This document shows, one piece after another, positions 6,258 through 47,453 of a DNA stretch of 64,000 nucleotides (the stretch's first letter is position 1; the number at the start of each line of letters is the position of its first letter). The translations under genes were made by a program, and so were the position numbers. The DNA is from an uncultured delta proteobacterium (lineage in GTDB: Bacteria; Myxococcota_A; Polyangia; Polyangiales; Polyangiaceae): the NCBI GenBank assembly GCA_963763745.1, contig CAVXQJ010000016.1, positions 257,029 to 321,028 of the forward strand, read 5' to 3'. Under the pieces are notes generated by a model. It made no database searches and was not told the DNA's origin. It saw only the letters and a program-made list of their open reading frames with translations.

Positions 6258-6260
6258 GCT

Positions 6261-6283
6261 CTTCTTTTACACTGTAAAAGAAG
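6261..6283. promoter_or_regulatory. AT-rich perfect palindrome CTTCTTTTACA-C-TGTAAAAGAAG, a candidate operator 4 nt upstream of the aminoacylase start codon
   Basis: Perfect 11-bp inverted-repeat arms, read directly. AT-rich in a ~70% GC background. Lies in the 56-bp divergent region between the 6257 (-) and 6314 (+) gene starts. Confidence 0.4.
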
Positions 6284-6313
6284 CGAGCGCCACGAAAATG
6301 ATATCGTCGCGAC

Positions 6314-7433: not shown

Positions 7434-8734
7434 TGAAACGGCGGAAGCGCGAGCCGCAGAATCCGAGAGCCGTACGCTTCCTCGGGACCGCGCGCGAACG
7501 TCCACACTTCGCCTTCGTCGACGTAAAAGGGTTGATCGAAGTGGATGCTCGGATCGGGTGATTGGATGGTAGCGGTCCACCCGTCGCGACGAACCGCGTA
7601 GAGATAAGGCTGCTTGTCCGGAACTTGGAGTGCGAAGATGCCGCGAAATGCGACGCCAGTCGCGTAATAGGAATAGAGCGGAATCGTGACGAGCGAATGG
7701 GCTTCGATGTTGATGGCCGCTGGGTCGTTCGAATAGCCCGCAGCCCAAACTTCCGCGAGCGGCGGCGCGGCGTCGGGCACGTCATCGACGTTCTCGATCC
7801 AAAAGAGAGTTTCTCCGTCCGTCGCGGGTGCTGCGACGTGACGACCACCGTGCTCGCGCGCAACCGCCGTGCTCCCATCCGCGCGCAGCAAGATGACCGC
7901 ACCGCCAACCGTGGTGAAGAATGCGTCGTCACCCTCGACGAACGAGGGCATGGCATCGAACCATCCCGCTACATGAACCGAGCTGCCCGTCCCGACGGGC
8001 AAACGAAGCAAACTACCTTGAACCGCGAGCGCGAGCGTCGTGTCCGACGATCGAACGCCCGAGACGTTCGGCGCTTCAGTGCCTGCAAATCGCACCATCG
8101 ATGGCGAATCGAGCATGTCGTCGACGGTGCCATGCGCGGAGTAAAGCGCGTAGGGCAAGGTCGGCCGCTGGTCGATTGCGAAGAGCGTGACGCCGCTCGG
8201 CGTCGGAATGGGCTCTATCGTGCACTGTGCAGCGACGAACAGCGTGCTCTCGTCGACGCGCCACGCGCCGACTGCGACGTTCGTCGAAACGTCGTAAACG
8301 TCATGTTCCCAGGTCACCTCGTTGCCTTGCGCGAGCCAGCGGACGACATCGAAGTAGCGGATTCGACCGTCTGCCCCGCGCGACACGAAGGCGCCGCGAA
8401 AAATCGGATCGATCCCGACGCTCTGCCAAGTCATGTCGAGCATCGAGCAGCCCGCGCCGGCGTCGTCGCACGGTTTCCACGCGAGGGGCGGAATGCTCGC
8501 GAGGTCGTCGGGCACGCTCGTCATGCAACATCCATCGAGCCCCGTCGTGCGATGCCAACCAGGCCAATCGGAGACGGGCCCGCCATCGACGAGGCAACTC
8601 GGGAGCGTGCTCGTCTCCGGCGCGCGAACGTCGTCGGCACGGGCGTCTTCGAAAGACGCTTCGATGGGTGCCTCGTGCGTCCCGCCGCACGCAGCCACCG
8701 CGCCGACGACCGCCGTGAGGAGTGCGCGCCGCAT
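7430..8734 (-). CDS. Lipoprotein, hypothetical (434 aa)
   Basis: MRRALLTAVVGAVAACGG lipobox; intact long ORF with high GC3. Confidence 0.6.
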   Translation of the reverse strand: MRRALLTAVVGAVAACGGTHEAPIEASFEDARADDVRAPETSTLPSCLVDGGPVSDWPGWHRTTGLDGCCMTSVPDDLASIPPLAWKPCDDAGAGCSMLDMTWQSVGIDPIFRGAFVSRGADGRIRYFDVVRWLAQGNEVTWEHDVYDVSTNVAVGAWRVDESTLFVAAQCTIEPIPTPSGVTLFAIDQRPTLPYALYSAHGTVDDMLDSPSMVRFAGTEAPNVSGVRSSDTTLALAVQGSLLRLPVGTGSSVHVAGWFDAMPSFVEGDDAFFTTVGGAVILLRADGSTAVAREHGGRHVAAPATDGETLFWIENVDDVPDAAPPLAEVWAAGYSNDPAAINIEAHSLVTIPLYSYYATGVAFRGIFALQVPDKQPYLYAVRRDGWTATIQSPDPSIHFDQPFYVDEGEVWTFARGPEEAYGSRILRLALPPFQ

Positions 8735-8742
8735 CCCGTAGA

Positions 8743-9870
8743 CTACCTCGAGATCGCCCCCGCGGAGCGCAGCGTGATCTCCACGACCGCCGGCGCGACG
8801 CCCACGCGCACGGGTGGCCCGCTCGTCCCGAGACCGGGGTGAACGAAGAGCGTGCTCTTGCCGTCGCGATAAAGTCCGAGCGTGTGCGTTCGATGAAGTC
8901 GTCCGGCGTTCACGATGCGTTCGAAGAAGGGGAGCGCCACTTGTCCGCCGTGTGTGTGACCGCTCAGCATCAGATCGACGCCGTGCGACGCGGCCGCGGG
9001 AAAATCGGCTGGATCGTGCGCGAGCAAAATCGTCTTCGCGTTTTCGGGTCGATCGCCGAGCGCGCGTGCGATGTCGGAGCGGCGCGTCCAGCGATCGTCG
9101 ACGGCTGCGAGGTAGAGCGATTCGCTTCCGCGCAAACGCACACCCGCGTTGCGAAGCACGGAGACGCCGCTTGCTTCGAGCATGACGACCAGCGTCTCCG
9201 CGTCGCCGCGCGCGTCGCGAAAATAATCGTGATTGCCGAGCGACACGACGACGCCGTCTTTCGCGCGCAGCGACGCGACGACGTCCGCGATGTCTTCGTG
9301 GAACGCGCTTCCATTCGACACCATGTCGCCCGTCACGACGGCGAGATCCGCGTCGAGCGCGTTCGCCGCGGCGGTCCATCGCATGCCCCAATCGCGCGGC
9401 GAGAACGGTCCGATGTGCATGTCCGACAAATGCGCGATGCGATAACCGTCGAAGCGCGGGTCGAGCCCCGCGATCTCGATCTCGACGCGCGTCGTTCCGA
9501 AGTAGCGCCTCCGAACGTACGCACCCCACACGGCGAGCGCGCACGCGACGCCGTACGCGCACGCGATCGCCGTTCCGATCGGCGTGCGCGTCGCGAGGCC
9601 GATCGCGATCGCGACGAGCGCGAGCGGAATCGAGATGAGCCCTGCGGCCCAATGCGTGAAGTACGCGACGTCGACGCCCACGGCGAGCGCGGAGCGCTTC
9701 TCTCCGCGCAAATAGTGATTCGCGCGCGACACGAACGCGAGCACCGACGCGATCGCGATCGCGATGCCAACCCATCCGAACAGCACGTAGAGCGCCACAA
9801 TCGGAACGACATGCCCGAGCAGCGTCAGCCCGAGCATGCGCGTCATGTACCGACTGAGACGAAGCACCAC
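8743..9870 (-). CDS. Membrane-anchored metallophosphoesterase (calcineurin-like phosphoesterase)
   Basis: N-terminal TM helices, then the metallophosphatase motifs IAHLSDMH, GDMV, GNHD, GHTHGGQ. Start may be the internal Met at 9846. Confidence 0.8.
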   Translation of the reverse strand: MVLRLSRYMTRMLGLTLLGHVVPIVALYVLFGWVGIAIAIASVLAFVSRANHYLRGEKRSALAVGVDVAYFTHWAAGLISIPLALVAIAIGLATRTPIGTAIACAYGVACALAVWGAYVRRRYFGTTRVEIEIAGLDPRFDGYRIAHLSDMHIGPFSPRDWGMRWTAAANALDADLAVVTGDMVSNGSAFHEDIADVVASLRAKDGVVVSLGNHDYFRDARGDAETLVVMLEASGVSVLRNAGVRLRGSESLYLAAVDDRWTRRSDIARALGDRPENAKTILLAHDPADFPAAASHGVDLMLSGHTHGGQVALPFFERIVNAGRLHRTHTLGLYRDGKSTLFVHPGLGTSGPPVRVGVAPAVVEITLRSAGAISR

Positions 9871-33076: not shown

Positions 33077-35566
33077 ATGCGACGCTCCGTCTGGATGTCC
33101 CTTGCGATTCTCGCGTGCGGGCCGAAACCCGCCGCGACGACTTCGCTCGATGCCTCCGTCGCGGTCACGCCCGCGTGCATGACCGCGCGCGAGGCGCGTA
33201 GCAAAGCGACGGAGCTCGAGCGCGGTGGGCACGAAACCCTCGCGCTCGCGAAGATCGCCGAAGCGAACGCGGCGTGTCCGTCGGAGAGCGCGCAGAGCGC
33301 AGAGCTCGAGAAGCTCGTGCGTGCGAACCTCGCCGGGCCGGGAGGCGCGCCCAAGGGAACCGACGCGTCGATGCGCGCGAAGATGCGCGAGGCGTACAGC
33401 GCCGAGCGCGCGAAGGATTTCCCGCGAGCGAAGTCGCTCTACGAAGCCGCGTGGGGCGAGATGCATCCGAACCCGCGCGCGCTCGAAGACGCGGCGCGCA
33501 TGGCGGCACTCGCCGGCGATTCGGCCGCATCGCGACGCATCCGCGATCGCGCGCTCGCCGAAGCGGAGACCGCGGAGCACGCCGTGGCGCGCTTGACGGA
33601 TCGCATTCGCGTCGCGCGCGGCTCGGCGATTCTCTCCGGCACGACGCTCACGCTCGCGCACAATGGCAACGTCGTCGCGCGCGACACGGCGACGGGCGAG
33701 ATACGCGTCCTCGTCGATGGCCCGAGCGACATGGCTTTGTCGCGATACGGAACGCTCGCGTTCCAAACGCCGAGCGGCCACACCGCGAGCCCGCTCACCG
33801 TCTACGACGTGCTCACCGGCGCACGGCTCTTTCGCATCGACAAAATCACGCGCTATGCGGTCTCGCCCGACGACGCGCTCATCGCGGTCATCGACGAAGA
33901 CGCAACGCCGAATTCGCCCGAGACGCACGCGCGCGTGTTCGACGTCGCGACGGGAGAGGTGAAGACGAAGCTCACGGGCAAATGGCGACAGAGCTCGGAG
34001 CTCGTCGGCTTCGGGCCCGACGCGTCGCACGTGATCTTCTACGGCGACGACACCGACCTCGTGTTTCGCCCGTACGATCTCGACAAGGGCGCATACACGG
34101 GAACGCGGATCGCATCGTCTTATGGAGTGTCTGCGCTCTCGAGCAACGGACATTACCTCGCGTACCTCGAGACGACGGGCGACGGCGCGCCGCTCCACGT
34201 GCGCGATCTCGTGGCGAACAAAGACGTCGGGATGTGGGCGGGAAGATTTCACAGCGTCGAAGCGCTCGCGGTCTCGAACGATGGAAAGACCGTGGCGACC
34301 GGGTCGTACGGATCGCTCAGGCTCTGGGACGTCGCGCAGAAGAAACAGCTCTTCGTCCACAACACCGAATCGCGGCTCGCGGGCGCGACCGACTCGCGCC
34401 TCGCGGACGAGTACTCGTTCAGCGACGACGGCAAGACGATGGTGCTCGCGGGCTACGGCGTCGCCACCGCGTGGGACGTGACGACCGGCGCCGAGAAGCC
34501 GTTCGTCTCCGACGTGGGCCCCGAGAACGTGCTCGCTGTCGTGAAGGCGCCGGACGGCGTCGCGATCATCGCTGAAGACTTGGTGCAGATCGTTCCGACG
34601 ACCGGAGATCCGCGCGTCGTGTGCAAGGGATTGCCGCAGCCGTATTCGCCGATCATCGGACCCACGAACGTCGCGTTCTCCGCGAGCGGGAAGTCATTTG
34701 CGTGCGTGATGTCGGACGGATGGGCGCACGTCTTCGACACGACGACGTGGACGGAGCGCGCCGTGATCAAGAAGGGCGCAGCGTCGCCGATCGCGCATCC
34801 CGTCGACCTCGCATTTTCGGCCGACGAAAAAGCGCTGACGATCGTGTCGAACGCGGGCTCGATCGTCTACGACGCGACCACGGGCGCGGAGACGAAGCGA
34901 GCTCCGTTCCGACATCCCAAGTCGCTCGGTTTCGCGCCGCGACACGCGCGCTTCGACGATGGCAGCGCGCTCGTGCGTTTGTGGAACGGGTCGGCGTCGA
35001 TCTTCGGCGCGGACGGCGCGTGGCAGCGCGACGTGAAGCTCGTCTCCGCGGCGCCCGCCGACGCGCTCGATGCGTTCGCGAGCGGCGGCGCGACGTACGC
35101 GGTCGCGCTCGGAAAGACGGTGCACGTCGTCGATCTCGCGAGCGGCGAAGATCACTCGACGGATCTCGCGAGCGCGCCAAAGAGCCTCGCGGTTTCGTCC
35201 GACGGCAAGACGGTGCTCGCCGCGTCCGCCGATGGTTCGATCTCGACGATCGCGGGCGGCGTGGCGACCGCCCTCGCGCACGCGACGGGAATTCGCGTTG
35301 GCTTCGCGGGCAAGTCCATGCTCGTGTGGCGCGCGAAGGACGTCCTCGATCTCTACGCGCCCGGCGCCGCGTCGCCATTCGAGCTCGACGTGGACGGCGT
35401 GGGCGTCTTCGCTCAAGACGCAGCGGGCGCGTTCGACGTGCGTGGCAAGCCCGAGCTCGTGTGCGTCGTCGGCCAAGAACACGCCAAGACGTTCCTCACG
35501 CGCGAGACATGCGGCGAACGCGCGAAAGACGGCCTCGTCGGCGATTGGCTTCGCGCAGCGCGCTAG
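33077..35566 (+). CDS. WD40 / beta-propeller repeat lipoprotein (829 aa)
   Basis: MRRSVWMSLAILAC lipobox; N-terminal helical region; multiple WD-like repeats (...GSLRLWDV..., ...ATAWDV...). Confidence 0.65.
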   Translation: MRRSVWMSLAILACGPKPAATTSLDASVAVTPACMTAREARSKATELERGGHETLALAKIAEANAACPSESAQSAELEKLVRANLAGPGGAPKGTDASMRAKMREAYSAERAKDFPRAKSLYEAAWGEMHPNPRALEDAARMAALAGDSAASRRIRDRALAEAETAEHAVARLTDRIRVARGSAILSGTTLTLAHNGNVVARDTATGEIRVLVDGPSDMALSRYGTLAFQTPSGHTASPLTVYDVLTGARLFRIDKITRYAVSPDDALIAVIDEDATPNSPETHARVFDVATGEVKTKLTGKWRQSSELVGFGPDASHVIFYGDDTDLVFRPYDLDKGAYTGTRIASSYGVSALSSNGHYLAYLETTGDGAPLHVRDLVANKDVGMWAGRFHSVEALAVSNDGKTVATGSYGSLRLWDVAQKKQLFVHNTESRLAGATDSRLADEYSFSDDGKTMVLAGYGVATAWDVTTGAEKPFVSDVGPENVLAVVKAPDGVAIIAEDLVQIVPTTGDPRVVCKGLPQPYSPIIGPTNVAFSASGKSFACVMSDGWAHVFDTTTWTERAVIKKGAASPIAHPVDLAFSADEKALTIVSNAGSIVYDATTGAETKRAPFRHPKSLGFAPRHARFDDGSALVRLWNGSASIFGADGAWQRDVKLVSAAPADALDAFASGGATYAVALGKTVHVVDLASGEDHSTDLASAPKSLAVSSDGKTVLAASADGSISTIAGGVATALAHATGIRVGFAGKSMLVWRAKDVLDLYAPGAASPFELDVDGVGVFAQDAAGAFDVRGKPELVCVVGQEHAKTFLTRETCGERAKDGLVGDWLRAAR

Positions 35567-35576
35567 CCGCCGCGAA

Positions 35577-37280
35577 GTGTGTATCCTGCAAGTCGGCGTG
35601 GACCTCGATCCCCAACTTCCCCAACCTGGGGCGCTCGTCGCGGAGAAGTTTCGCATCGAGCGCGTGCTCGGCATCGGCGGCATGGGCGTCGTTTACGCGG
35701 CGAAGCACGAGCTGCTCAATCAACAGGTCGCGCTGAAGCTCCTCTTGCCGGAGGTCGCGAAAGACAAAGAAGCGGTCGCGCGATTTCTCCACGAGGGCCG
35801 CGCGACCGCGCGCCTTCAGAGCGCGCACGTCGTCCGCGTGATGGACGTCGGCATGGTCGGCGATGCGCCGTTTCTCGCGATGGAGCTTTTGTCCGGCGAG
35901 GATCTCTCGGTGGTGCTCGAGACGCGCGGACGATTCCTGATCACCGAAACCGTCGACTATCTCCTCGAGGCGATGGAGGGGCTTTCGCACGCGCACGCCG
36001 CGGGGATCATCCACCGCGATCTCAAGCCGTCGAATTTGTTTCTCGTGCGCGAGGGCGAGACGCGCACGATCAAGGTCGTCGACTTCGGGATTTCGAAGTC
36101 GATGGGCACCGAGGCCGGCAACATCACGTCGACGTCCGCGGTGCTCGGCTCGCCCGCGTACATGGCGCCCGAGCAGCTCCGGAGCTCGAAGCACGTCGAC
36201 GCGCGCGCAGACGTTTGGTCGCTCGGCGTGATCGCATTCGAGCTTTTGACGAACGCGGTTCCATTCGACGGCGAGACCGTCGGGCAAATCTTCGCGAACG
36301 TTCTCGAGAAGCCGCCCACGAGACCCGGGACGCTGCGCGTCGAGATCCCCGGCAAGCTCGAAGAGGCCATTTTGCGGTGTTTGCAGAAGTCGGCGGACGC
36401 GCGGTTCTCGAGCGTCGGCGAGCTCGCGAGCGCGATCGCGCGGTTCGGAACGGGTCGATGCGATCCGCTCGTCGCGAGCATCGAGAAGAGACTGAGCGCG
36501 CCGGGCGCGGCGCCGCTCGTTCAATCGCGGCCGTCGATTCCCGATCTCGAGCCGAGCTCGCCGAAGCTACGCACCACGTCCGCCGCTCCGAAAGCGGCGC
36601 CACCGCCCATCTCCACACCCGGCTTCGAGTTCGACGACGAACCGATGGGACCGAGCCTCATCACGGTGGATGAAGCGCGCGCGAAACCGGCGTCCACATC
36701 CGCGAGCGCGAGCGGCGCCTCGAGGGCCGCGCAAGTCACGATCATGACGCGACGCGCGGCGCCGCCATCCGACTTCTTGCGTTCGTGGCTCGCGCCCGCG
36801 GTGCTTCACGCATGCATCACGGCCGCGACGTTCTTCTTGCTACGTCGCGTCGCACCGCCGCGGCCCGCGTGGGACGTCTTCGCGCTTCTTCCCGGCACGA
36901 CCGAAGGCTCGCCATCTTCGACGAGCGCGATCGTCGGCGGCGTATTCGCGGCGGCGTGCATCGGTTGCTCGGTCGCCGCGATCGCGAGCCACTCGGCGCG
37001 ATGGGGCTTCGTGATCTCGACGCTCGGTTTCTTCGCGATCTCGCTCGGCATGTTCCTCATCATGGGATCGGCGTCGGGCGGCGTGATCGGCGTGCCGTCG
37101 GGCGAGAAGATGTTCGTGAACGTGGGCTCGCCGCTCATCGCAGCGGGTCTCGCGATCGCGTGCCTCGGCAAGGCGCGCGACGCGTGGCGAGATTACGGCC
37201 GTGTGCTCCCACCCATCCTCGCGGCGGTCGCAGGTGCGCTCTTCTACGTCGCGCTCAGGCTCGTCACGCTCACGGTTTGA
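35577..37280 (+). CDS. Hanks-type Ser/Thr protein kinase with a C-terminal multi-TM domain
   Basis: GIGGMGVVYAA...ALKLL, HRDLKPSNLFL, DFGISK, ...GSPAYMAPEQ; Pro-rich linker; C-terminal TM helices. The start could instead be the GTG at 35598. Confidence 0.8.
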   Translation: MCILQVGVDLDPQLPQPGALVAEKFRIERVLGIGGMGVVYAAKHELLNQQVALKLLLPEVAKDKEAVARFLHEGRATARLQSAHVVRVMDVGMVGDAPFLAMELLSGEDLSVVLETRGRFLITETVDYLLEAMEGLSHAHAAGIIHRDLKPSNLFLVREGETRTIKVVDFGISKSMGTEAGNITSTSAVLGSPAYMAPEQLRSSKHVDARADVWSLGVIAFELLTNAVPFDGETVGQIFANVLEKPPTRPGTLRVEIPGKLEEAILRCLQKSADARFSSVGELASAIARFGTGRCDPLVASIEKRLSAPGAAPLVQSRPSIPDLEPSSPKLRTTSAAPKAAPPPISTPGFEFDDEPMGPSLITVDEARAKPASTSASASGASRAAQVTIMTRRAAPPSDFLRSWLAPAVLHACITAATFFLLRRVAPPRPAWDVFALLPGTTEGSPSSTSAIVGGVFAAACIGCSVAAIASHSARWGFVISTLGFFAISLGMFLIMGSASGGVIGVPSGEKMFVNVGSPLIAAGLAIACLGKARDAWRDYGRVLPPILAAVAGALFYVALRLVTLTV

Positions 37281-37782
37281 TTCGCTCGCGCACGACGGCC
37301 CCGTTCGAAGCCGCGCCCACGACTTCGACATAGTCGACGCCCAAGAGCTTCTGTTTGACGAACACGCTCGTCACGCGCGCGCGCGTTCCGGAGATCGTCA
37401 TCGTCGCGGACGACGTGCACGCGCCGTCGGGCGCTTTGTTCGTGTGAATGACGATGTCGCGCGATGGGAGCCCGCGCAGGACGACGCGAACTTCGGCGCC
37501 AGAGGCGGATTGGCTTTCGACGCCGAACGCGCGCTCTTCGATCCCAGCGGCGAGCGGCTCCGTCGCGTCCGGCGAACGCTCGAGCATGCGCCAATACGGA
37601 TGAACCGGCGATGGCCCAGCTGGGTTGCAGTCGTCGTCGACGCGCACCGCGTAGTGCACTTCGTTCTTGTTGCCGCTCTTCGCGATCGACAGCGCGCTCG
37701 GGATTTCTCCGGGCGACGCGTGCGAAACGTTCGAGACGAAGACATTGGCGACGGTGAGCGTGATGACGTGGAGCGAGCGCAT
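37270..37782 (-). CDS. Secreted DUF4833-like protein (hypothetical)
   Basis: Signal peptide MRSLHVITLTVANVFVSNVSHA. ...SIAKSGNKNEVHYAVRVDDD... resembles the DUF4833 core from memory; unverified. Confidence 0.45.
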   Translation of the reverse strand: MRSLHVITLTVANVFVSNVSHASPGEIPSALSIAKSGNKNEVHYAVRVDDDCNPAGPSPVHPYWRMLERSPDATEPLAAGIEERAFGVESQSASGAEVRVVLRGLPSRDIVIHTNKAPDGACTSSATMTISGTRARVTSVFVKQKLLGVDYVEVVGAASNGAVVRERIKP

Positions 37783-37856
37783 CGGATGACCTCTCATCTT
37801 CCGTTGCGCGCGCCTCGCGATCGATTCGTCACGGTTTTGCAACCGAGCTCATGCGT

Positions 37857-38318
37857 CTACTTGCGCGCGAACCACGGGCACTTCGTGAGGAGCTCTTTCG
37901 TCGGCTTGCGATCGCAGTGAAAGCCCGCTTTGTTCCCGTTGACGATCACGTCGCCGCACGATTGCACGACCTCGTACGAGCGCGCATCGCGCGGATCGCG
38001 CTTGCGCGGGCAGTCGCCGAGCCGGGTGATCTCGGAGTCGTAGTGACCGTAGTCGGTCGGGCCCCATTCGATCGTCGCGGGGATCACCTGACCGACTTTG
38101 AACTTCGACGCGCACTGCGTGAACTCCTGATTGCCTTGCAACGTCTCGAGCTGCTCGCCGGGACAATCGGGATACTCGACGTTGATCTCGACGATGCGCG
38201 GATCGTTCGTCTTCGGATCGCGCGCGACGATCTCGACGCTCCTCAGCGTCACCGTCGTGTCGAACATGCGCGGCTTGCTCTCGCACGAAACGAGCGCCAA
38301 ACACACGAAGGCGAGCAT
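37857..38318 (-). CDS. Small Cys-containing lipoprotein, start overlaps the channel gene stop (TGATG)
   Basis: MLAFVCLALVSC lipobox; 8 Cys; the alternative upstream ATG at 38330 would give MRGVMLAF.... Confidence 0.5.
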   Translation of the reverse strand: MLAFVCLALVSCESKPRMFDTTVTLRSVEIVARDPKTNDPRIVEINVEYPDCPGEQLETLQGNQEFTQCASKFKVGQVIPATIEWGPTDYGHYDSEITRLGDCPRKRDPRDARSYEVVQSCGDVIVNGNKAGFHCDRKPTKELLTKCPWFARK

Positions 38319-39445
38319 CACACCACGCATGCGATCACCATGATGATGACGGTCGCCACGGGGACGACGGTTCGCGCGATGCGGAAGACGCGGTCGATGT
38401 TCTCTTCCTTCACGATGAAGAACCACCACGTCGAGAGCATGTTGAGGAAGAGCGACAGGTAGACGCCCACCATGAGCTTGTCGGCGCGCGTGAGGTAGCT
38501 CACCGCGGGTAGCGCTTGCATGAGCGCGAAGTGGAAGAGCACGGCGGCGGCGAGCATCGGCGCGCCCGCGTTGGATCGCACGTCGACGCGATGGAAGGGG
38601 ATCCACATCGCCATGAGCGAGATGAGCACGATGACGATCGCGGGAACGTAGACCGTGAACACCGCGCTCGTGCCGTATCGCTCGATGCCGAGGCGGAACT
38701 CGTAGCGACCGTAATAGAGATCGTCGTTGTCGAAGCGATCGGGAAAGTTGTGAACGATGGAGACCGCCTCGAGATAGATGACGTCCCAGCCGATCACCTC
38801 GAAGCCGGCCTCGAGGTGCGTGTGGCCTTGGTCGGGGATGAGGCGGATCTGATCGATGCCCTCGGTGTTCTCTTCGACTTGAATCGTGAGCTGTTGATCG
38901 TCGAATGGGTAATGCCGCAAGTCCGGAGGCGAGTTGAACGTGCCGGTGAAGCGATAGAGCTTGAAGGTCGGCTTGTCCGCGATGACTTGTTTCTCGTCGG
39001 GCTTGCCGTTCGGGAACATCAAGTCCATCGATGGCATCTCGCGCTCGCTCGTCAGGCTGAGATAAAAATCCGCGACGAACGAGCCGGTGTGGATGTCGTA
39101 GTTGGTGATGTCGTTGATGACGATACCGACGCGCACGTCGGCGATTTTTCCCCATTTCGGATTCGCGAACGGCGAGCGGTACTCGCCGTTCGTGTGAATG
39201 GGGACTCCGCCGTCGGCGCCGACGACGGCGTCTTCCATTTGATCCTCGGGTGGTTTGCCGGAGTCGGCGCCGGCGTCGGCGCCAGCGTCTTGTTCGGTGT
39301 CTGCGCCACCGCCTTTCGGGGCGACCTTCGGCGGCGCGTCGGCGTGCACGCGCTTCGCGAACAGCATGCAGCCGAGAACCACCGCTGCGAGGAGCGACAA
39401 GATCTGGACGATGATCGTCCACGGACGGAGCCGCGCCGAGGCCAT
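38318..39445 (-). CDS. Pentameric ligand-gated ion channel (Cys-loop receptor superfamily, GLIC/ELIC-like) homologue with an N-terminal acidic linker
   Basis: ECD motif ...RHYPFDDQQLTIQVE...; M1 YVPAIVIVLISLMAMWI; M2-M3 ...AVLFHFALMQALPAVSYLTRADKLMVGVYLSLFLNMLSTWWFFIV matches the LP.VSY..AID consensus; M4 IARTVVPVATVIIMVIACVV. Confidence 0.8.
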   Translation of the reverse strand: MASARLRPWTIIVQILSLLAAVVLGCMLFAKRVHADAPPKVAPKGGGADTEQDAGADAGADSGKPPEDQMEDAVVGADGGVPIHTNGEYRSPFANPKWGKIADVRVGIVINDITNYDIHTGSFVADFYLSLTSEREMPSMDLMFPNGKPDEKQVIADKPTFKLYRFTGTFNSPPDLRHYPFDDQQLTIQVEENTEGIDQIRLIPDQGHTHLEAGFEVIGWDVIYLEAVSIVHNFPDRFDNDDLYYGRYEFRLGIERYGTSAVFTVYVPAIVIVLISLMAMWIPFHRVDVRSNAGAPMLAAAVLFHFALMQALPAVSYLTRADKLMVGVYLSLFLNMLSTWWFFIVKEENIDRVFRIARTVVPVATVIIMVIACVV

Positions 39446-39466
39446 CGCGCGGACGATACATCAAAC

Positions 39467-39910
39467 TCAAAACGATTTGAACGACGCCACCGCGACGCCG
39501 ATGGACGCGACGACGAGCGCGAACGAAAACGCGACGACGTACGCGAGGTGCGCGGTGCGCGCGATGCGCTCGCGAGCGGGCTCCGGCGTCATCGGCGCGA
39601 CGAAGTGCGCGATGCATCCGACGAGCGCGAACGCGACCGCGGCCACGGCGAGGTGCTCTTTGCGCTCGAACGCCCAACCCCACGAGGGCGCTTCGATGAA
39701 GATGCGTTGCTTGAGGCGCGTCCGATAATCCGGATACATCCACGCGCCGAGCGAGGCGGTCACGACGAGGAGCACCGTCGTGAGCCCGACGGAGAGACGC
39801 GCGCGCCGCTTCGGGTTCCGCAAGACGACGACCGGATGCAGCAGCGCGACGACGGCGAGCCAGCCGAGGTGACCATGAATGCGCTCGAGGAGCCTGAGCG
39901 TTTGGATCAC
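39467..39910 (-). CDS. 4-TM His-containing membrane protein, possibly cytochrome b561-like (weak)
   Basis: VIQTLRLLERIHGHLGWLAVVALL... resembles the ...R..HW..A... opening of cytochrome b561/NiFe-hydrogenase b subunits; conserved His in TM1, TM3 and TM4. GTG start overlaps the upstream stop (GTGA). Confidence 0.35.
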   Translation of the reverse strand: MIQTLRLLERIHGHLGWLAVVALLHPVVVLRNPKRRARLSVGLTTVLLVVTASLGAWMYPDYRTRLKQRIFIEAPSWGWAFERKEHLAVAAVAFALVGCIAHFVAPMTPEPARERIARTAHLAYVVAFSFALVVASIGVAVASFKSF

Positions 39911-40209
39911 GGCAAGAACAATCCTTGAATGCCGGCGAGCGCGGCGACGGCGATCACGGCGACTTCGAGCATGCGCGCGGCGCGCGCGAGATCGCGCCGC
40001 GCGACTTCGAACGCACCGATGCCGACGATGGGCGCGACGTACACGCCGATCCACAAACGCCAGAACGTCGCGATCTTCACGGACGCCGTGATCACCGCTG
40101 GGTTCGGCTCTGCGACGAAGAAGACTTCATACCCGCGCATGACGGCGTACACGGCGGGAACCGTGAGGACCGCCGACGCGAGCGCGACGCCGAGCGCGGG
40201 TTTGTTCAC
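39907..40209 (-). CDS. Small (about 100 aa) integral membrane protein, hypothetical
   Basis: VNKPALGVALASAVLTVPAVYAV..., three hydrophobic segments; GTG start 8 nt after the preceding stop. Confidence 0.35.
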   Translation of the reverse strand: MNKPALGVALASAVLTVPAVYAVMRGYEVFFVAEPNPAVITASVKIATFWRLWIGVYVAPIVGIGAFEVARRDLARAARMLEVAVIAVAALAGIQGLFLP

Positions 40210-40216
40210 GTGCGCA

Positions 40217-41020
40217 TTAGAACCCGAAGCCGACGAGCGTGCGAAACCAAATGGGGCCGTACGAATCGACGCCCGCATCGAGCACGCGGCCGAAGTTCGA
40301 CACGCGCATGTAGATGCCCGACGTCCAGAAGAAGTTGCCGAACGAGAGTCGCAGCGTCGGGCCGATGTAATGATGCGGTCCGCCGTTGAAGTCGCCGGAC
40401 TCGGGCGCGTCGGAGCGCACCTCCGCGCGCATCCAATATTCGAAGCCTGGAAAAACGTTCGGCGTCGCTTGCACCGTGAAACCCGCCGTCGGGTTGAAGA
40501 CCCACTCGCGGCGGCCGGTGTAATAAAATTCGTATTCGAACCACGCGTTCGCGAGGAGCCGCACGGGACCAAAGCGGCGCTCGAGGATGACCTTCCACTC
40601 GAGCTCGACCTCCGTGTTCGCTTCGCTCACCTCGCCGTAGAGCGCGACGTCGATGGGCCAGTCGCCTTGATCGGCGAGCCGCCATCGGACGCGCTGCTTT
40701 GCGCCGTTGCCTTCCGTGAGCGAAGGGATCGCAAAATATCCGGAGGCCTCGGGCGAGAGCGTCACGTAGAGGCCGAGCTCGACGCGATTCGACAGGCCGT
40801 ATTCGACTTCGGTTTGGAGCTGCGTCGCGAGGTAACGTTCGGGTAGGCCGTTCGCGTTCAGCGCCATCACGGGAACGAGATCGACGTACTGCTCGACTTC
40901 GCCTTGGCCCTTCGGGTTCGTGTCCGTTCCGTACGTGAAGGGAAGGGGCTTCGGCGTCGCGCCCGCGGTGCTCGCGAGCGTGATGATGCACGCGCCAACG
41001 AGCGGACCACGCACTACCAT
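40217..41020 (-). CDS. Outer-membrane beta-barrel protein, hypothetical
   Basis: Signal peptide MVVRGPLVGACIITLASTAGA; alternating amphipathic beta-strand pattern; C-terminal ...TLVGFGF aromatic terminus typical of OMPs. Confidence 0.55.
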   Translation of the reverse strand: MVVRGPLVGACIITLASTAGATPKPLPFTYGTDTNPKGQGEVEQYVDLVPVMALNANGLPERYLATQLQTEVEYGLSNRVELGLYVTLSPEASGYFAIPSLTEGNGAKQRVRWRLADQGDWPIDVALYGEVSEANTEVELEWKVILERRFGPVRLLANAWFEYEFYYTGRREWVFNPTAGFTVQATPNVFPGFEYWMRAEVRSDAPESGDFNGGPHHYIGPTLRLSFGNFFWTSGIYMRVSNFGRVLDAGVDSYGPIWFRTLVGFGF

Positions 41021-41568
41021 TGCGACAGCGACAGCTCCGGCGCGAAGACGCAGTCGTTGTTCTGCGCGCTCGAGTGGCAGCTCGTACACGCGCCGCAGCT
41101 CGCATACGGCGAGCCGGCATTGGGCTCCGTGCCGCTCCATTCGAAGCCCGTGCCGGCGTCGGGCGCGAAGAGTCCGTACCACTCCCAACCTTCGCAGCCG
41201 CTTCCCGCGTTGAATCCGCCGCCGCGCTTTGCCATGGCGAACACTTGCCAAGTCGACGGATCGCTCGTCACGCGGATTTGCTTCACGATCATCGTTCCGA
41301 CGGGAAATGCGGTCGATCCGTGCGCGGGCGATTCGTTCATGAACGCGACGCGCGGGACGTTCGCGGTGTGCGCGCATGCGTCGCCGATCATTCCGCCGTC
41401 GCCGCCGCCGAGATCGTACGACGTCCACGATTCGTAGCTCGCGAAGTCGCTCGGGAACGCGACGAACTCGCCCGCGTCGTCCGCCTGATGCACGTCGGGC
41501 GCGCACGCGGATGCGAGCGCGCATACGGCGATCTCAAAAATGAATCGTGATGCTCTCGATGTCGCCAT
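41014..41568 (-). CDS. Cytochrome P460-like haem-c lipoprotein
   Basis: Lipobox VCALASAC; single CXXCH (CTSCH) near the C-terminus followed by NDCVF. ...AFPVGTMIVKQ... and ...GGGFNAGSGCEGWEWYGLF... resemble cytochrome P460 conservation from memory. Confidence 0.5.
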   Translation of the reverse strand: MATSRASRFIFEIAVCALASACAPDVHQADDAGEFVAFPSDFASYESWTSYDLGGGDGGMIGDACAHTANVPRVAFMNESPAHGSTAFPVGTMIVKQIRVTSDPSTWQVFAMAKRGGGFNAGSGCEGWEWYGLFAPDAGTGFEWSGTEPNAGSPYASCGACTSCHSSAQNNDCVFAPELSLSQW

Positions 41569-42046
41569 AGCCGCAGTCGGTGGTGGGTGGTGCGTGGAGA
41601 TACGCGTCACTGGCGATCGTGCCGTGCGCGGTCATGCTGGGTGCGTCGAACGCGTCGAGCGTGAGCGTGAGCGTGCCGTTCGGAGCTTCGGTGCTCCCGG
41701 CTTGGAACACGCACGCCGACTTCGCGGAGATCGCGGTCACGTCCCACGACGAGGCAGAGTCGTTCGTGAGCTGACCGATGGTGGGAGCGCTGCCGAGATC
41801 GATCGACGCCGCGATGCGCTCGAGCCCGGTCGTCTTCGTGTCGATCTTCAGCATCCAATCGCCGCCGGCGTCTGCGTCTTGCGAGACCGTCACGCACGCG
41901 GGCTCGCTCGACGCGCTGTACACGTTGCCCGTGAGCACGAAGTCGCACGTGCTCGGCCCGGCGTCGTTCGCGGAGGGCGAAGAGCTGCACGCGGAGAGCG
42001 CCAAGAAGGCGAGCTCACAGACTCTTGAGATATTCCGTGAGCGCAT
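41534..42046 (-). CDS. Lipoprotein, hypothetical (170 aa)
   Basis: MRSRNISRVCELAFLALSAC lipobox; overlaps the 3' end of the upstream disrupted CCP-like gene by 32 nt. Confidence 0.5.
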   Translation of the reverse strand: MRSRNISRVCELAFLALSACSSSPSANDAGPSTCDFVLTGNVYSASSEPACVTVSQDADAGGDWMLKIDTKTTGLERIAASIDLGSAPTIGQLTNDSASSWDVTAISAKSACVFQAGSTEAPNGTLTLTLDAFDAPSMTAHGTIASDAYLHAPPTTDCGYGDIESITIHF

Positions 42047-44250
42047 TCAGATCCTCTGGCGAGAGCGTGATGTTCTTCGTCGCGGCGAGCATGCGCGCGG
42101 CGGCATCCGAGAGCGTCGCCGCGCTCCCGTCGTGGAAATACGGCGGCGTCGACCACACGCCGCTCAGCGACGGCGTGTCGAAGAGACACGCACCGCGCGC
42201 GTTCCCGTCGATGTCGGTGTGCGCGACGTCGGGAAACACGCCGCCGTTCACGCACGTGCCGACGTCGTGCAGCGTGATCGGTCCCGACAGATCGAGCGTC
42301 GGATTGTCAAAGCCCGAATCGGTGAAGCGCGGGCCCGAGTGACACGTCGCGCATCCGTTGTTTTGGAAAATCGCCTGACCCTTCGCGACGAGCGTCGCGT
42401 CGGTCGTCGGCGGGATCGGCAGCGGGATGCCGAAGTTCACGTACGTCGCGATCGCGTCGAGCAGTTTTTGCGATCCCCGAATCCGTCGCGTCGAAGCGCC
42501 CGCCTTGCTCGATGTTGATCGTGCGCCAGTAGTCTTGGACCTCGGTTGCGATCCGCCGTGCGAAACAGGAACCCCGTGCCGAGCATGCCGCCCGCGTTCG
42601 TCGGCGTGTCGCGCGGGCCGGGCGTCGAAGCGCCACGTGACCGCGTCGCTGCGTCCTTCCATGTGACACGTCGCGCACGCGACCCAGTGGTTCGTCGTGA
42701 TGGGATACTCGTCGCTGTTCGCGGAGTAGAAGAGGTGCTGCCCGAAGCGCATCTCGGTGGGCATCGGATCGGACGCGAGCGTCGCGATGGGCGCGCCGTC
42801 CACGGTGAGCGTGAGCGCCCCGTCCGTGCGATTCACGTCGAGCACGACGACGTCGTTCGTGTTGCGCTCTTCGACGTAGGCGAATGTCTCGTCGGGCGAG
42901 AACGCGATCGCCTCCGGTTGATGACCCGGAAGCGGCCGCAGCATCGACGACTCGACGTGACGCACGGCGTCGACGACGAGCACGTCCTCGCTGTTCGTGT
43001 CGACCATCAGCGCGAACGCGCCGTCGCTGCGTGAACGCGACCGCATGCGGACCGGACACGACGTCGGCGAACGCGCCGTTCACGCCGGGCACGTCCTGCG
43101 CGTTGATCGACATGAGCCGCTGCACGTTTCCTTCGGGCGTCATCACCGCGAGCGCCGCGAACGTGGTCGACTCGAAATCGAGATCGGGCTGCGCGGTTTC
43201 GGTGCCGAGGAGCGAGAGTGCGACCCAGAGCTCCGTCGTCGCCGGGTCTTGGCGCGATGTCGTAGAGACCGCGCGGCTGTCCGTTCGCGAGACGCTTGTC
43301 TCCGCGCGGGTCGACGTCGGGAATGACGAACGGCGGCTTCGCGGTCATGGTGGCTCGGATCGATCGCCGTCACGCCCGCGGTGAGAAAGTGCGATCACGT
43401 AGAGCGTGCGCCGCCGGACCACGCGAGCGCCCATGGCTCTTGTCCGACGAGGGCGCTCGACTTCACCGTGAGCGACGCGGCGTCGAGCCGCGCGACCGTG
43501 TTGTCTTGCGAGCAAGCGACGTAGAGCGACGCGCCGTCGCGGCGAGAGCAAGATGCCAACGGGCTCGCTGCACACGGCGACGCTGCTCGTCGCCGACGCC
43601 GAGCCGACGTCGACCGCGTGCACTTTTCCGGAGCGCTCGCCGGTCACGTAGAGCGTCTTCTCGTCCGCGCGAGAGCGCGAGCGCGCGCGGCATGACGCAC
43701 GGCGCATACGCGCCGTTCGCGTCGACCTGCGGATGCGCGCGGCGCGAGGAGGACTTCGCGCTTCAGCGTTCGCGCGTTCGCGTGTCGAGGATCGAAACCG
43801 AATCGGCGTCGGGGTTCGACGACGAAGAGCGTCGCGCCGTCGCTTGGTGATCGCCATCGCCGACGAATGCAAGAACGGTCCCGTCACGCCGCGCGTCGGG
43901 GCCCGCGTCGTTCGTGCCCGCTCCACCGTTGCACGCGCACACGAGCCACGAGGCGCGATCGAAAGCGCGCTCCTCACTGCGCCCTCGCGACGTGGAAGGT
44001 GATCTGCGACGCGAGCGCGGCGGGCAGCTTCGCGTCGTCGATCTCGGGCACGCAATCGTGCTCGCGATCCGACGTCGTGCGTGCGCTGTCCGCCGATCGG
44101 AATTTGTTCTTCCGCCGCTGCCGCTCTCGCCCGTCAGCGTGCGCTCGGCCATCTGGAGCCCGCCGCGCGGAAGATTGCCGACGACGTTGACGCACTCGCC
44201 CGGCCAGTCGACGAGGCGGTTGTCGTTGCGATCGTCCCAGCCGTTGAGCA
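42015..44250 (-). pseudogene. Multiply frameshifted gene for a YVTN-type beta-propeller fused to a di-haem cytochrome c peroxidase/MauG-like domain (upstream boundary approximate)
   Basis: Two CXXCH motifs (CATCHMEG, CATCHSGP). Between them the coding sense passes through all three frames within about 200 nt (...AVTWRFD | TPGPRDTPTNAGGMLGTGF | EVQDYWRTINIEQGG | GSQKLLDAIATYVNFGIPLPIPP). Propeller fragments (FSPDETFAYVEERNTNDVVVLDV, KTLYVTGERSGKVHAVDVG, NPDADSVSILDT) are scattered over at least 4 frame segments. Confidence 0.55.
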
Positions 44251-44259
44251 CGAGCTTGT

Positions 44260-46452
44260 TCAGCCGGCCGACGCGCTCTTCGAGGATCGGCTCGAGCGTC
44301 TTGTCCGCCGGGTCGCGCCGCGACGAGCTCGTACACGTCGCGCAATGCGCTCTGCAGCAGCGCGAAGCGCAGCGGCGTGTACTCGACGTCGGTCATCGGC
44401 GCGGGCGTCGGCGAGTAGATGCGCGCGTCCGCGTCGTAGAACGTCGCGTCGAGTCGCGCATACACGGCCATCGCGCGGTCGCGGTATTTCACGTCGCCCG
44501 TCGCGAGGTACATCGCGAAGAGCCCGCGAATCGCCGCCGCGTGCGCGTCGAGCGTGTCGTTCGTGATCCGTCGGCTGCGAGGTCGCGACGTCCCAACCGG
44601 AGTACGCGCGGCCCGTCGCGTCGGTGAGGTGATCGTAGAGCAGCGCGCCTTGCGCGCGGAGCATCGTCCTCACGCGCTGCGAGAACGTCGCGCTCGACGG
44701 ATGGTTGATCGGGAGCGCGTCGAGCGGCGTCGAGACGATCGCGGTGTCCGGCGTGTTGTTCGAATAGAGCTCGAGCTGCGAGCACAGCGCGCGGAGCGCC
44801 GTGCGCATCGCGATGATCGCGTACGCGACCGACGTCGTCGCGACGGTCGTGCCGCGCGCCGGCGTGGTCCCGTTCATCGTGACGTCGTCGACGAGCACGC
44901 CCGACGGGTCGCGCGTGGATGCGATCCATGTCGACGAGCGCGACGCGCAGCATCGCGAGCGCGCGATCGTGCAGCGTGGGCTCGCCGTCGGCGTTCTGAT
45001 TGTCGGCCGCGAACGGATCGCCGTCGAATACGCACTGCGCGGTCTGCGAGCCGCCGACGTCGGCGTTGTTCGCGTCGCGTGATCGCGTAGAACTCGGAGT
45101 AGCCGAGCACGAGCCCGGCGAGATCGAGCAAGCTCGCTGTCGGCGACGAGAGCGCGTACGCGGGCATCGGAAAGCCGCTCGCGTCGTCGCTCTCGGTCAC
45201 CGCGATCGCGCGCGGGAACCAGCGCAGCGGCGCTTGGTAGTCGTACGCGAGCGCGTCGCAGCGTCGTCGCGAAGCCCGAGAGCGTCGCGCCGTCGCGCGG
45301 TCGTGAGGTTGCATGAGCCAATCCTCGGCGCGGTTGTCGAGCTCCTCGATGAACATCTGCGCCTGGAAGCCTTCGATGTCGCTCGAGCCGAGGAACGTGC
45401 CCGGCGCAGTCGCCGCGCCCGTGTCGTCGGCGCCGACGATTTGATTGCCCGGCGCGCCGACGTTCGCGAGATCGCTCGCGGCGACGCGTCGCGACGCCCG
45501 CCTCGGTCGAGTCGTGCATCACCTGCAGGTAGTTGAGCACCCAGAGCCCGTACTTCCACGCGCTGAAGCCGTCGGCGCCGGGCGTGATCGACCGGTTCGA
45601 TCTGCGACGCGCGATCGCGCAGGTGCAGCGTCGTCGCGTCGCACTCGTAGTCGGCGCACGTGAGCGCGCCCGCCGATCCCGGATCGTCGTCGGAGCTGAT
45701 CGAGCAGTACGAGGTCGACCGGCGCTGGTGGGCGCGATCGTCGGATCGAAGCTGCGGAACACGTGCACCGTGGGCCAGATGCCGGGCCAGCCGAGCGGGT
45801 TCTCCGACGCCTGTCCTTTCGCCGAGCGGGTTGGCGTCGCCCGGTCCGCGCGGCTCTGCCGCGAGGTTCGGTTGTCGCGGAAACGTGCTCGCCGGAAACA
45901 CGAACGCGCCGAGCGCGTTCGCTGCCCTGCGCGAAGTGCTGAACGAGCGTCGCGAGCGCGCGCCGTCGCTTGCGCGCCATGCAGCGCGCCGCCCGCGTTG
46001 ACGAGCGGACCGTAGACGAGCGAGGTGCCCGCGCCCGACTCGAACGCGATGTTGTTCATCGGTTGCTTCGAGTACTCGTACGACTCGACGCCGGTGGAGA
46101 AGCCGGGAAGATCGATCCACGCGCCGCTGCGCGTTCGGTGCCGTCGTCGAAGTAGAGATCGTCGGGGACGTGATCGCGGCTGTAGTCGGTGAGCTCGCGA
46201 CCCATCGACTCGGCGAACGGCTCGCCGGAGATCTGCATCTCGCCCGACGCGAGGAAGTGCTCGCGCGTCACGAAGCGCGTGCTGCCGACGCGTCGCGGTG
46301 ATCGTCACGAGCGGCGGCGGTGGAGGGGCTTCGACCGATGCGTCGAATCCACCATCGGTCGGGGTCGGCGCGCTTGGACCACATGCCGCAAACCCAATCC
46401 CAGCGAAAACCGCTGCCGAGAAGTTGAAAGCGACTTTCATCTTCATGTTCAT
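44260..46452 (-). pseudogene. Heavily frameshifted large lipoprotein gene, possibly an (alpha/alpha)6-barrel glycosidase/epimerase-like protein
   Basis: Lower-GC N-terminus MNMKMKVAFNFSAAVFAGIGFAAC (lipobox). Real-looking segments alternate with frame breaks: HFLASGEMQISGEPFAESMGRELTDYSRDHVPDDLYFDDGT, WIDLPGFSTGVESYEYSKQPMNNIAFESGAGTSLVYGP, GADGFSAWKYGLWVLNYLQVMHD, ...ALLYDHLTDATGRAYSGWDV.... At least 8 frame changes. Confidence 0.45.
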
Positions 46453-46460
46453 TTACTGTT

Positions 46461-46506
46461 CTTTGCGGGATTCGCAAAGACAAAACCTCAAGTTCGGATC
46501 CGAACT
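46461..46506. promoter_or_regulatory. Two palindromes between tandem minus-strand genes: CTTTGCG-GGATT-CGCAAAG (46461-46479) and a perfect 16-mer AGTTCGGATCCGAACT (46491-46506)
   Basis: Read directly. On the minus strand the 16-mer hairpin is followed by GAGGTTTTGTC (terminator-like for the 46533 gene). The second hairpin ends 9 nt before the ATG of the 46452 gene. Confidence 0.4.
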
Positions 46507-46532
46507 TACGGGTGAGGTGCCGACCGATGGCG

Positions 46533-47453
46533 TTACGGCGCGTCGCAGAAGTCGGCGTAGCGCTCCACATCGAGCGCGGCGATGACGGCGCTGCGCTCGC
46601 CGGGACGGTAGCTCTCGTAGAACGCGACCTCGGCGTCGCGATATGCGGGCCACACCACGACGGCGTCGTTGATCGCGGGAAGCGTATCCGGCTCGGCGTC
46701 CGCGCGCGCGGTCGCGAGCGCGCGCGCGGCGTTCTCCTCGGCGATCGCGAGCTCGGGCGCGCGTGGGATCCAATTCGATTGCATGAGTCGCTCGATGCGC
46801 GTGTGGCGCCTCTTCATTTGCGCGAGGATCGCGGCGCGCATCGCGGGATCGCGCATCGTGCCGCCAGCGAATCGCGCGTAGGTGATCGCGCCGACCTTGA
46901 ACGCGTAGGCGTCGTGCGCCTTTGTCGCCGCGGCGAACAGCGCCGCGCGATCGCTCGACATGGTGCGCTTGACCACGCGAAGCCAGATGTCTTCGTTCTC
47001 GACGTGCTCGGCGATGCACGCGCTCGATGCGAGCGTCGTCATGGCGAACGCATCGCACGACCCGAACGCCGCCTCGTGCTTCGCTTCGTGCTCGCGCACG
47101 GTTTGGACGGATGCGTCCTCGAAGCATCCGTCGAAGAGCGCGAGACCGCGCTTCGAATCCGCGGGGCCTCCCGTTCCGTCGATGAGCGACACCGCGAGCT
47201 CGAGGCGCGCGAGCGATGGCGATACGTGGTCGCCGCACGGATCGGATTTCACCTCGCGCTCGAGACACGCACGTGCCTTGGTTGCGTCGGGTGATGCGCC
47301 GTCGGGAGCGTACGCGCCGCACGGAAGCTCTTCTTCGTATGCAGCGATGGGAGCGGCCGCGTCGATCGCCGGCGCGGCGAGCGTGACCGATGGAGCCTCC
47401 GCGGCGCGACAACCGATGAAGAGGACAGCCCACCAAACCCGCACGCCGTTCAT
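46533..47453 (-). CDS. Secreted hypothetical protein, possibly DUF1311/LprI-like (weak)
   Basis: Signal peptide MNGVRVWWAVLFIGC; about 300 aa, helical, several conserved-looking Cys. Family call is a guess. Confidence 0.45.
   Translation of the reverse strand: MNGVRVWWAVLFIGCRAAEAPSVTLAAPAIDAAAPIAAYEEELPCGAYAPDGASPDATKARACLEREVKSDPCGDHVSPSLARLELAVSLIDGTGGPADSKRGLALFDGCFEDASVQTVREHEAKHEAAFGSCDAFAMTTLASSACIAEHVENEDIWLRVVKRTMSSDRAALFAAATKAHDAYAFKVGAITYARFAGGTMRDPAMRAAILAQMKRRHTRIERLMQSNWIPRAPELAIAEENAARALATARADAEPDTLPAINDAVVVWPAYRDAEVAFYESYRPGERSAVIAALDVERYADFCDAP

Follow-up and report, generated by a model that had tools for sequence, protein, structure and literature searches.

A divergent pentameric ligand-gated ion channel of Polyangia and the Cys-rich lipoprotein gene conserved beside it

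The window analysed here is a stretch of 64,000 nucleotides (nt) from an uncultured delta proteobacterium of the family Polyangiaceae (contig CAVXQJ010000016.1 of assembly GCA_963763745.1, positions 257,029 to 321,028). Its minus strand carries, at 37270-42046, eight co-directional, real-looking open reading frames (ORFs) with very short junctions, just as a first-pass annotation of this DNA had described them; they are named g1 to g8 here, in order of transcription. [quoted passage not shown] The first-pass annotation had taken all eight genes for a single redox-linked trans-envelope system built around the channel, a proposal that fails when gene neighbourhoods are compared among related genomes; what recurs beside the channel is g7.

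Junctions read from the sequence measure -32 nt between the upstream gene and g1, -35 for g1 to g2, -7 for g2 to g3, +8 for g3 to g4, -4 for g4 to g5 (GTGA), +21 for g5 to g6, -13 for g6 to g7 (from the g7 start codon ATG at 38330, with TGATG also present at this junction), and +74 for g7 to g8. Base composition around the region is about 62-70% G+C, with numerous spurious ORFs on both strands, and a separate gene call, made on an identical Logan contig, gave the same gene models for g4 through g8. A consensus scan found no promoter-like sites, and terminator-like sites occur at chance level, results that do not decide the transcription units. There was no Rfam match at gathering threshold over 30-50 kb. 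PADLOC matched none of the eight proteins, and a phage-defence or toxin reading of the region was rejected on that result. In a high-GC genome, close packing of genes in one direction is not in itself enough for an operon-level system.

The first-pass annotation had recognized g6 as a pLGIC from its motifs, and had named the Pfam Neur_chan models as a check. Its identification is upheld, but not by that check: Pfam gave no match to g6 at E<=0.1, Neur_chan models included, and a precomputed Pfam domain was present for 0 of 120 g6 homologues among those listed. Because Pfam gave no match, the assignment rests on a phmmer search of PDB sequences, on sub-threshold NCBIfam matches, and on the predicted fold. 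The phmmer search returned 226 matches at E<=1, the best reaching 1.6e-11 over residues 155-368, with a chimeric alpha1 GABA-A receptor construct, GLIC, and GLIC-GABA-A chimeras as the best matches. The NCBIfam models LGIC_1 and TIGR00860 match at about 1e-7 (7.5e-8 for LGIC_1) and score far below their thresholds, at 32 bits (cut-off 500) and 31 bits (cut-off 280), respectively. An AlphaFold2 model built from 42 homologues (predicted local distance difference test score, pLDDT, of 80) shows the strands of a beta-sandwich at residues 102-256 and four helices at 261-374, together with a hydrophobic helix at the N-terminus and a disordered linker. Foldseek comparison of this model with the PDB gave more than 1000 matches, the 50 listed being pLGICs without exception (best E 9e-20), and the TM-score to GLIC is 0.73 over 313 columns, the whole length. 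By fold and by signatures, g6 belongs to the pLGIC superfamily, outside every curated subfamily model tested. The protein database has more than 800 homologues; those with a named source are without exception from Polyangia (Labilithrix, Polyangiaceae, 'Myxococcales'), and every one has the annotation 'hypothetical'.

The motifs quoted in the first-pass annotation are present. The architecture consists of a signal peptide with an AxA site, a disordered linker of about 30 residues, a beta-sandwich extracellular domain, and four transmembrane helices with a minimal M3-M4 loop. YPFD stands at residues 179-182, in a Pro-loop, FNSPPDLRHYPFDDQQL, that the PDB phmmer alignment places against VLSPLDFRRYPFDSQTL of GLIC; across 94 family sequences, P180 and D182 are each found in 94/94, Y179 in 91/94, and F181 in 87/94. 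The M1 motif reads VYVPAIVIVLISLMAMW and the M2-M3 motif LPAVSYLTRADKLMVG; P268 of M1 and L312-P313 of M2-M3 show little or no variation in sets of 42 and 94 family sequences, and align with the corresponding GLIC and GABA-A residues. We take the N-terminal helix for a signal peptide that is cleaved and whose hydrophobic core is unusually long. The core is about 21 residues long and is followed by basic residues and then by the AxA-type site, which is conserved after this helix (VHA followed by D here, AFA followed by A in homologues); the alternative to cleavage is that the helix may be retained as a fifth transmembrane segment. The mature N-terminus combines a variable linker rich in acidic residues, Ala and Pro with a conserved motif, GGVP.H..G.YRSPFA.P, that has no counterpart in GLIC.

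Positions in the pore-lining helix M2 were assigned prime numbers from the alignment to 6cdu, the chimeric alpha1 GABA-A receptor construct, and to GLIC. In the 94 sequences, the -2' residue is Glu or Asp in 94/94, 0' is Arg in 94/94, 2' is Asn in 90/94, 6' is Pro in 94/94, 9' is Ala in 93/94, and 13' is Leu in 91/94, with Phe or Tyr at 16' and Gln at 20'. An acidic ring at -1'/-2' is an established determinant of cation selectivity in the nicotinic acetylcholine receptor, the 5-HT3 receptor and GLIC. Because the -2' position is acidic in every sequence, the g6 channel is predicted to be cation-selective.

With GLIC and ELIC, g6 has in common the beta-sandwich extracellular domain followed by four transmembrane helices, the minimal M3-M4 loop, the lack of Cys-loop cysteines, the YPFD Pro-loop, the M1 and 23' prolines, and the acidic -2' residue. 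It differs in being only about 20% identical to them and in being missed by the Pfam models, in its N-terminal extension with the conserved motif, in an invariant 6' Pro and 9' Ala where GLIC and ELIC have Ser/Thr and Leu/Ile, and in having a conserved, separately encoded partner protein. To our knowledge, no such separately encoded partner exists for GLIC or ELIC, the gene neighbourhoods of both lying outside this comparison.

A scan of one genome per species identified 102 relatives, and 80 loci were retrieved. All eight window proteins were compared by tblastn with 87 channel-bearing loci. Retrieved channel loci are nearly all from Polyangia, including the cultured Labilithrix luteola DSM 27648, whose locus (L013) is NZ_CP012333.1:8315944-8332927, and Minicystis rosea DSM 24000. 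The tblastn comparison showed no homologue of g1, g2, g3, g4, g5 or g8 at any of the 87 channel-bearing loci, the two closest relatives, added later, are likewise without them, and across 89 related loci these six genes are absent from the neighbourhood of the channel. The closest relatives, with channels 77-87% identical to g6, share g6 and g7 alone, with the 13-nt overlap present in four, and their neighbours differ on both sides: an H+-pyrophosphatase flanks the pair at L005, urease accessory genes and ATP-binding cassette (ABC) ATPases at L007, a resistance-nodulation-division (RND) pump at L088, and an acyltransferase at L089.

Homologues of g2 sit in a collinear cluster on two long contigs, L090 and L091. 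Gene order there is a 310-aa protein, an 840-aa protein, a beta-propeller/di-haem cytochrome c of 611-658 aa, g1, g2, g3, g4 (102 aa), and g5 (148 aa); the cluster ends at g5, a Band_7 gene follows, and there is no channel. By tblastn, the window at 39467-47441 is collinear with this cluster, and the junction overlaps match. The 4.8-kb stretch that holds g1 to g8 thus appears to be a juxtaposition of three units: a module A that ends at g5, a module B made of g6 and g7, and a stand-alone g8 (Table 1). The last of these, a DUF4833 protein, is a neighbour unrelated to the channel. The module A envelope cluster covers L090:1463-10124 and L091:2022-10126 as well as 39467-47441 of the window, with eight genes and conserved overlapping junctions.

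These comparisons bear directly on the notion of one operon of eight genes, in which a haem lipoprotein, an outer-membrane protein and small membrane proteins would join the channel in a trans-envelope chemosensory or redox-gated ion-flux system. Co-directional genes with overlapping or very short junctions, the want of any terminator-like signal above chance between them, and a g5-g6 spacing of 21 nt, which makes a common transcript plausible in this genome, all accord with such an operon. We nevertheless regard it as very improbable, and the comparative data already go most of the way to refuting it. The eight-gene system fails the synteny comparison, which the first-pass annotation had itself named as a refuting test, because g1 to g5 and g8 lie near no channel homologue in related loci, the two closest relatives of the channel included. 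Moreover, g1 to g5 recur in a different cluster that stops at g5 before the Band_7 gene, g4 and g5 are without a cytochrome b signature, and the two largest genes of module A are frame-disrupted in the window. Because g1 to g5 travel with the upstream cytochrome c and 840-aa genes, the redox theme belongs to the neighbouring cluster rather than to the channel.

Table 1. Coordinates of genes and selected sequence features at the channel locus (positions within the 64,000-nt window)
Feature	Position	Strand	Description	Unit
g1	41534..42046	-	lipoprotein, 170 aa, family unknown	module A
g2	41014..41568	-	lipoprotein with C-terminal CXXCH, probable remote cytochrome P460 relative	module A
g3	40217..41020	-	outer-membrane-protein-like secreted protein, 267 aa, ends LVGFGF	module A
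g4	39907..40209	-	small hydrophobic protein, probably membrane-spanning, about 100 aa	module A
g5	39467..39910	-	small membrane protein with several His, 147 aa	module A (last gene)
g6	38318..39445	-	divergent pentameric ligand-gated ion channel subunit, 375 aa	module B
g6 Pro-loop	38888..38938	-	Cys-loop equivalent without cysteines, FNSPPDLRHYPFDDQQL	module B
g6 M1-M2 loop and pore-lining helix M2	38507..38590	-	prime numbering by alignment to 6cdu and GLIC	module B
g7	37857..38330	-	Cys-rich lipoprotein, 157 aa	module B
g8	37270..37782	-	secreted DUF4833 protein, 170 aa	stand-alone neighbour
Cytochrome c gene	42018..43945	-	beta-propeller and di-haem cytochrome c (RoxA/CCP-like), frame-split	module A
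Homologue of 840-aa gene	43977..46452	-	lipoprotein-like, frame-split	module A
Homologue of 310-aa gene	46536..47441	-	first gene of module A, intact in window	module A

The g7 protein has the lipobox LVSC, six conserved Cys residues in its mature domain, and the motifs YPDCPGEQ, GHYDSE and GFHCDRKP...KCPWF. Its fold is mostly beta, an OB-like barrel that starts about five residues past the lipidated cysteine. The family is very small: of 1.84 billion representatives, it accounts for 89 clusters at 50% identity, and almost all of these are stand-alone proteins of 150-200 aa. Homologues of g7 are found in 72 of the 87 channel-bearing loci by tblastn and in 74 of 89 by hidden Markov model (HMM) search. 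For 33 of 93 channel genes, g7 abuts the channel on the same strand, with the 13-nt overlap in the window's subclade; for another 19 of the 93, it abuts tail-to-tail on the opposite strand, an arrangement confirmed stop to stop by ORF reading at L010. A reciprocal search started from g7 showed a neighbouring channel gene at 10 of 11 metagenome loci, the eleventh contig being only about 1 kb long. Thus, where the first-pass annotation had grouped its lipoproteins with the channel, the Cys-rich g7 stands as a conserved partner while g1 and g2 do not. Module B is, from these neighbourhoods, a two-gene cassette conserved across Polyangia (Myxococcota), either co-directional or tail-to-tail.

In 32 of the 93 channel genes, a different gene, here called P2, directly follows the channel, and most of these loci also have g7 downstream. 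The 32 channels form one distinct sister clade, in which P2 is always directly downstream. P2, from an unannotated protein family, is about 190 aa long, with an N-terminal transmembrane anchor and a periplasmic domain that has two conserved Cys residues. Comparison of P2 with known families produced DUF5780 matches only, all of them sub-threshold. Distant homology between g7 and P2 was considered and rejected (hhalign probability 3.7%). The P2 motif can be written GxELHVxVENRGxC...GVAYGFDAxGRP...VAHVD..TCxDG; examples are found at L055:9190-9807, L072:9031-9618 and L080:2516-3124, and the gene occurs among loci L048-L084 and others. Only three loci with adequate flanks, L026, L035 and L082, have neither partner.

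Several arrangements of duplicated genes were seen. Tandem channel paralogues of different clades stand side by side, each with its own partner, at L019 (channels at 5188-6471 and 7524-8924), L024, L030 and L036. Several genomes have two or more channel copies at separate loci, Minicystis rosea (L027, L082) being an example. Extra copies of g7 occur immediately upstream as well as downstream of the channel at L002 (7303-7854), L009, L019, L021, L024 and L031, giving certain channels two or three paralogous g7-type lipoproteins as neighbours.

Channel distances and the distances of the paired g7 proteins correlate with a Mantel r of 0.82, a value reached in 0 of 2000 permutations; g7 evolves faster than the channel, with a mean distance of 0.63 vs. 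0.43. Adjacency survives strand inversion, paralog duplication, and full turnover of the surrounding genes, a pattern that argues for a functional connection between g6 and g7 without a need for co-transcription. Such a connection could arise without a complex. The two proteins might be co-inherited while g7 acts at a distance in the same pathway, for instance through the capture or processing of a small molecule or metal in the periplasm that the channel would then sense, or through dealing with what follows from ion flux, or the genes might stay adjacent for co-regulation alone. We think this unlikely: adjacency that is kept through strand inversions and in paralogous clades, with distances that co-vary, is tighter than is usual for loosely coupled partners, and in one clade the equivalent position is taken by P2, a membrane-anchored protein unrelated to g7, which speaks more for a structural part played at the channel than for a specific chemistry.

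Our preferred reading, held with moderate confidence, is that the region consists of juxtaposed units, and that g6 is a cation-selective pLGIC with g7 as its dedicated, separately encoded periplasmic accessory protein. By homology, g6 would form a homopentameric channel in the inner membrane, with its beta-sandwich domain in the periplasm, and would conduct cations through its pore. The g7 protein, disulfide-rich with three predicted disulfides, would be held at the membrane surface, because its fold begins so soon after the lipidated cysteine, and would dock on the periplasmic domain of g6 as a dedicated accessory subunit. Candidate docking surfaces are the invariant loop C of g6 (R237, F238, D241, D242, L243) and the conserved N-terminal extension. 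In that role, g7 might supply or shape the gating stimulus and mediate or tune gating, or it might be needed for assembly. P2, transmembrane-anchored and unrelated to g7, would take the same role in the sister clade. A stronger form of this proposal makes g7 or P2 an obligate auxiliary subunit, encoded by its own gene, that would dock on the periplasmic domain and serve as the true sensor or gate-keeper; the Polyangia channels would then be the first prokaryotic pLGICs of this kind. It is offered tentatively, as a possibility we hold to be somewhat doubtful.

Several observations weigh against the reading of g7 as a dedicated accessory subunit. The g6-g7 complex is a proposal drawn from genomic linkage, and no g7-channel fusion was found among the 89 g7 family clusters. 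Adjacency on either strand is evidence of linkage, not of contact, and shared vertical descent would by itself produce part of the Mantel correlation. Given the three loci that have neither g7 nor P2, the channel may be able to do without a partner. Conducting pLGICs do not typically have Pro at 6' and Ala at 9', both invariant here, such that channel behaviour is not to be assumed from homology. Finally, the 21-nt spacing between g5 and g6 may permit read-through from module A, and hence some local co-regulation, in this genome.

The unusual pore and the 13-nt overlap between g6 and g7 also admit a different role for g7, not as a sensor or modulator but as an assembly or quality-control factor, or as an inhibitory plug by which a potentially toxic channel would be held shut until released. 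An overlap of this kind, seen in the window's subclade, implies that translation of the two genes is coupled and that their products are made in roughly matched amounts, and a pore with 9' Ala replacing the usual hydrophobic Leu/Ile gate might leak and need control. Many of the pairs, however, are convergent and have separate promoters, the eight proteins match no known toxin-antitoxin or defence family in PADLOC, and there is no evidence of toxicity, so that we rate such a role for g7 as quite improbable. The accessory-subunit reading of g7 has parallels among animal receptors, which have separately encoded accessory proteins. Lynx1/Ly6 prototoxins are lipid-anchored, disulfide-rich accessory proteins of animal Cys-loop receptors, and the top Foldseek match of the g6 model includes GARLH4 as a bound partner (GARLH/LHFPL4, PDB 9faw). 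Both offer a functional analogy only to g7, in that a pLGIC has a protein of its own that is small, extracytoplasmic, rich in disulfides and lipid-anchored; they have no sequence or fold relation to g7, whose interaction with the channel is a prediction.

Among prokaryotic channels, DeCLIC, a pLGIC from Desulfofustis, has fused N-terminal periplasmic domains (PMC9897478, PMC12664993). The resemblance lies in a prokaryotic pLGIC with its periplasmic part extended by an extra modulatory module, which in DeCLIC is fused. A literature search returned no bacterial pLGIC with a separately encoded lipoprotein or other accessory partner and no report of a pLGIC from Myxococcota, which is not proof of novelty. 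The text and the examined supplements of a 2016 pLGIC inventory (PMC4795631) name no Myxococcota.

GLIC and ELIC serve as the main structural models for human neurotransmitter receptors, and the roles and native stimuli of bacterial pLGICs are largely unknown. The channels described here make up a whole pLGIC clade that standard domain models miss, spanning more than 100 species-level Polyangia genomes and more than 800 database proteins, and marked by an invariant unusual pore (6' Pro, 9' Ala) and by a genomically locked partner of a new family. That partner, g7, provides a concrete experimental handle on bacterial pLGICs, and the pair g6-g7 is the part of the region worth pursuing. If the proposal is true, the channel would be gated through its partner protein and not by binding a free small ligand, and would be a bacterial counterpart of the accessory-subunit biology of animal Cys-loop receptors.

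Module A might serve by itself in oxidation or detoxification in the periplasm. The first-pass annotation had likened one of its components, g2, to cytochrome P460, a comparison that the searches bear out. The Pfam model Cytochrome_P460 (PF16694) matches g2 at E 1e-4 over profile positions 39-124 of 125, with 23.1 bits, below the gathering score of 27, and 16 of 27 members of the g2 family match the same model at E<=0.01 (best 1.1e-5). When the family profile was compared with the PDB, nine of nine matches were cytochrome P460 proteins, the best at 7e-4 and aligning residues 45-177 with 13-140 of 144; as a single sequence, g2 had no specific match among solved structures. The CXXCH motif (C161, C164, H165) is invariant in the family, and K96, nearly invariant, aligns with a Lys of 9hrk_A, which makes it a candidate only for the cross-linking Lys. 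Support that is weak but specific thus points to g2 as a remote cytochrome P460 relative. It resembles cytochrome P460 and cytochrome c'-beta in size, in having CXXCH near its C-terminus, and in profile similarity over nearly the whole domain, and it differs in scoring below the Pfam gathering threshold and in being lipoprotein-anchored; both a cross-link and an activity are putative.

Other members of module A are conserved but largely lack family assignments. The g1 and g5 proteins are 50-58% and 64-71% identical, respectively, to their collinear orthologues on L090 and L091, and g3 is 80-83% identical to its orthologues there. No Pfam or NCBIfam family matched g1, and neither these collections nor PDB sequences gave a match to g3, which looks like an outer-membrane protein from its signal peptide and C-terminal LVGFGF alone, as read from the sequence. 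The start of g4 was taken as GTG at 40209; starting instead from the ATG at 40278 would give a 62-nt overlap with g3, and the orthologues on L090 and L091 were called at 102 aa. The first-pass annotation had described one small membrane protein as cytochrome b561-like, a label that finds no support: neither g4 nor g5 matched a cytochrome b family in Pfam or NCBIfam, the Ni_hydr_CYTB-type models that had been named for the purpose included. The Pfam matches of g5, to DUF6338 (0.0023) and Cyt_bd_oxida_II (0.025), are all sub-threshold.

Upstream of g1, the cytochrome c gene matches Pfam Cytochrom_C (2.3e-9), RoxA-like_Cyt-c, a CCP_MauG fragment, and Lactonase, a propeller. By tblastn with the intact 658-aa orthologue, its counterpart in the window shows at least two frame changes and an out-of-frame patch of about 130 nt. 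The first-pass annotation had reported a decayed di-haem cytochrome c peroxidase gene here and tied it to the channel; the interruption of a cytochrome c gene is borne out, and its redox theme goes with module A. The 840-aa gene has at least six frame changes in the window, and the L090 product aligns by tblastn as seven segments over all three minus-strand frames. In the same window, the homologue of the 310-aa protein aligns in a single frame, with 58% identity over 307 residues, and g1 to g8 are intact, downstream of the frame-disrupted 42018-46452. The frame changes there represent either real pseudogenisation or clustered local assembly indels.

On the other side of the channel genes, g8 matches Pfam DUF4833 (PF16117) at 1.3e-18, with 68 bits against a gathering score of 23.1, and received the same assignment in the Logan gene call. 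Beyond it, on the plus strand, 33077-35566 encodes a WD40/beta-propeller protein with a lipoprotein-like N-terminus, and 35700-37280, after the WD40 gene, encodes a Ser/Thr protein kinase with a C-terminal region of multiple transmembrane segments. The kinase gene and g8 are convergent, and their stops overlap by 11 nt.

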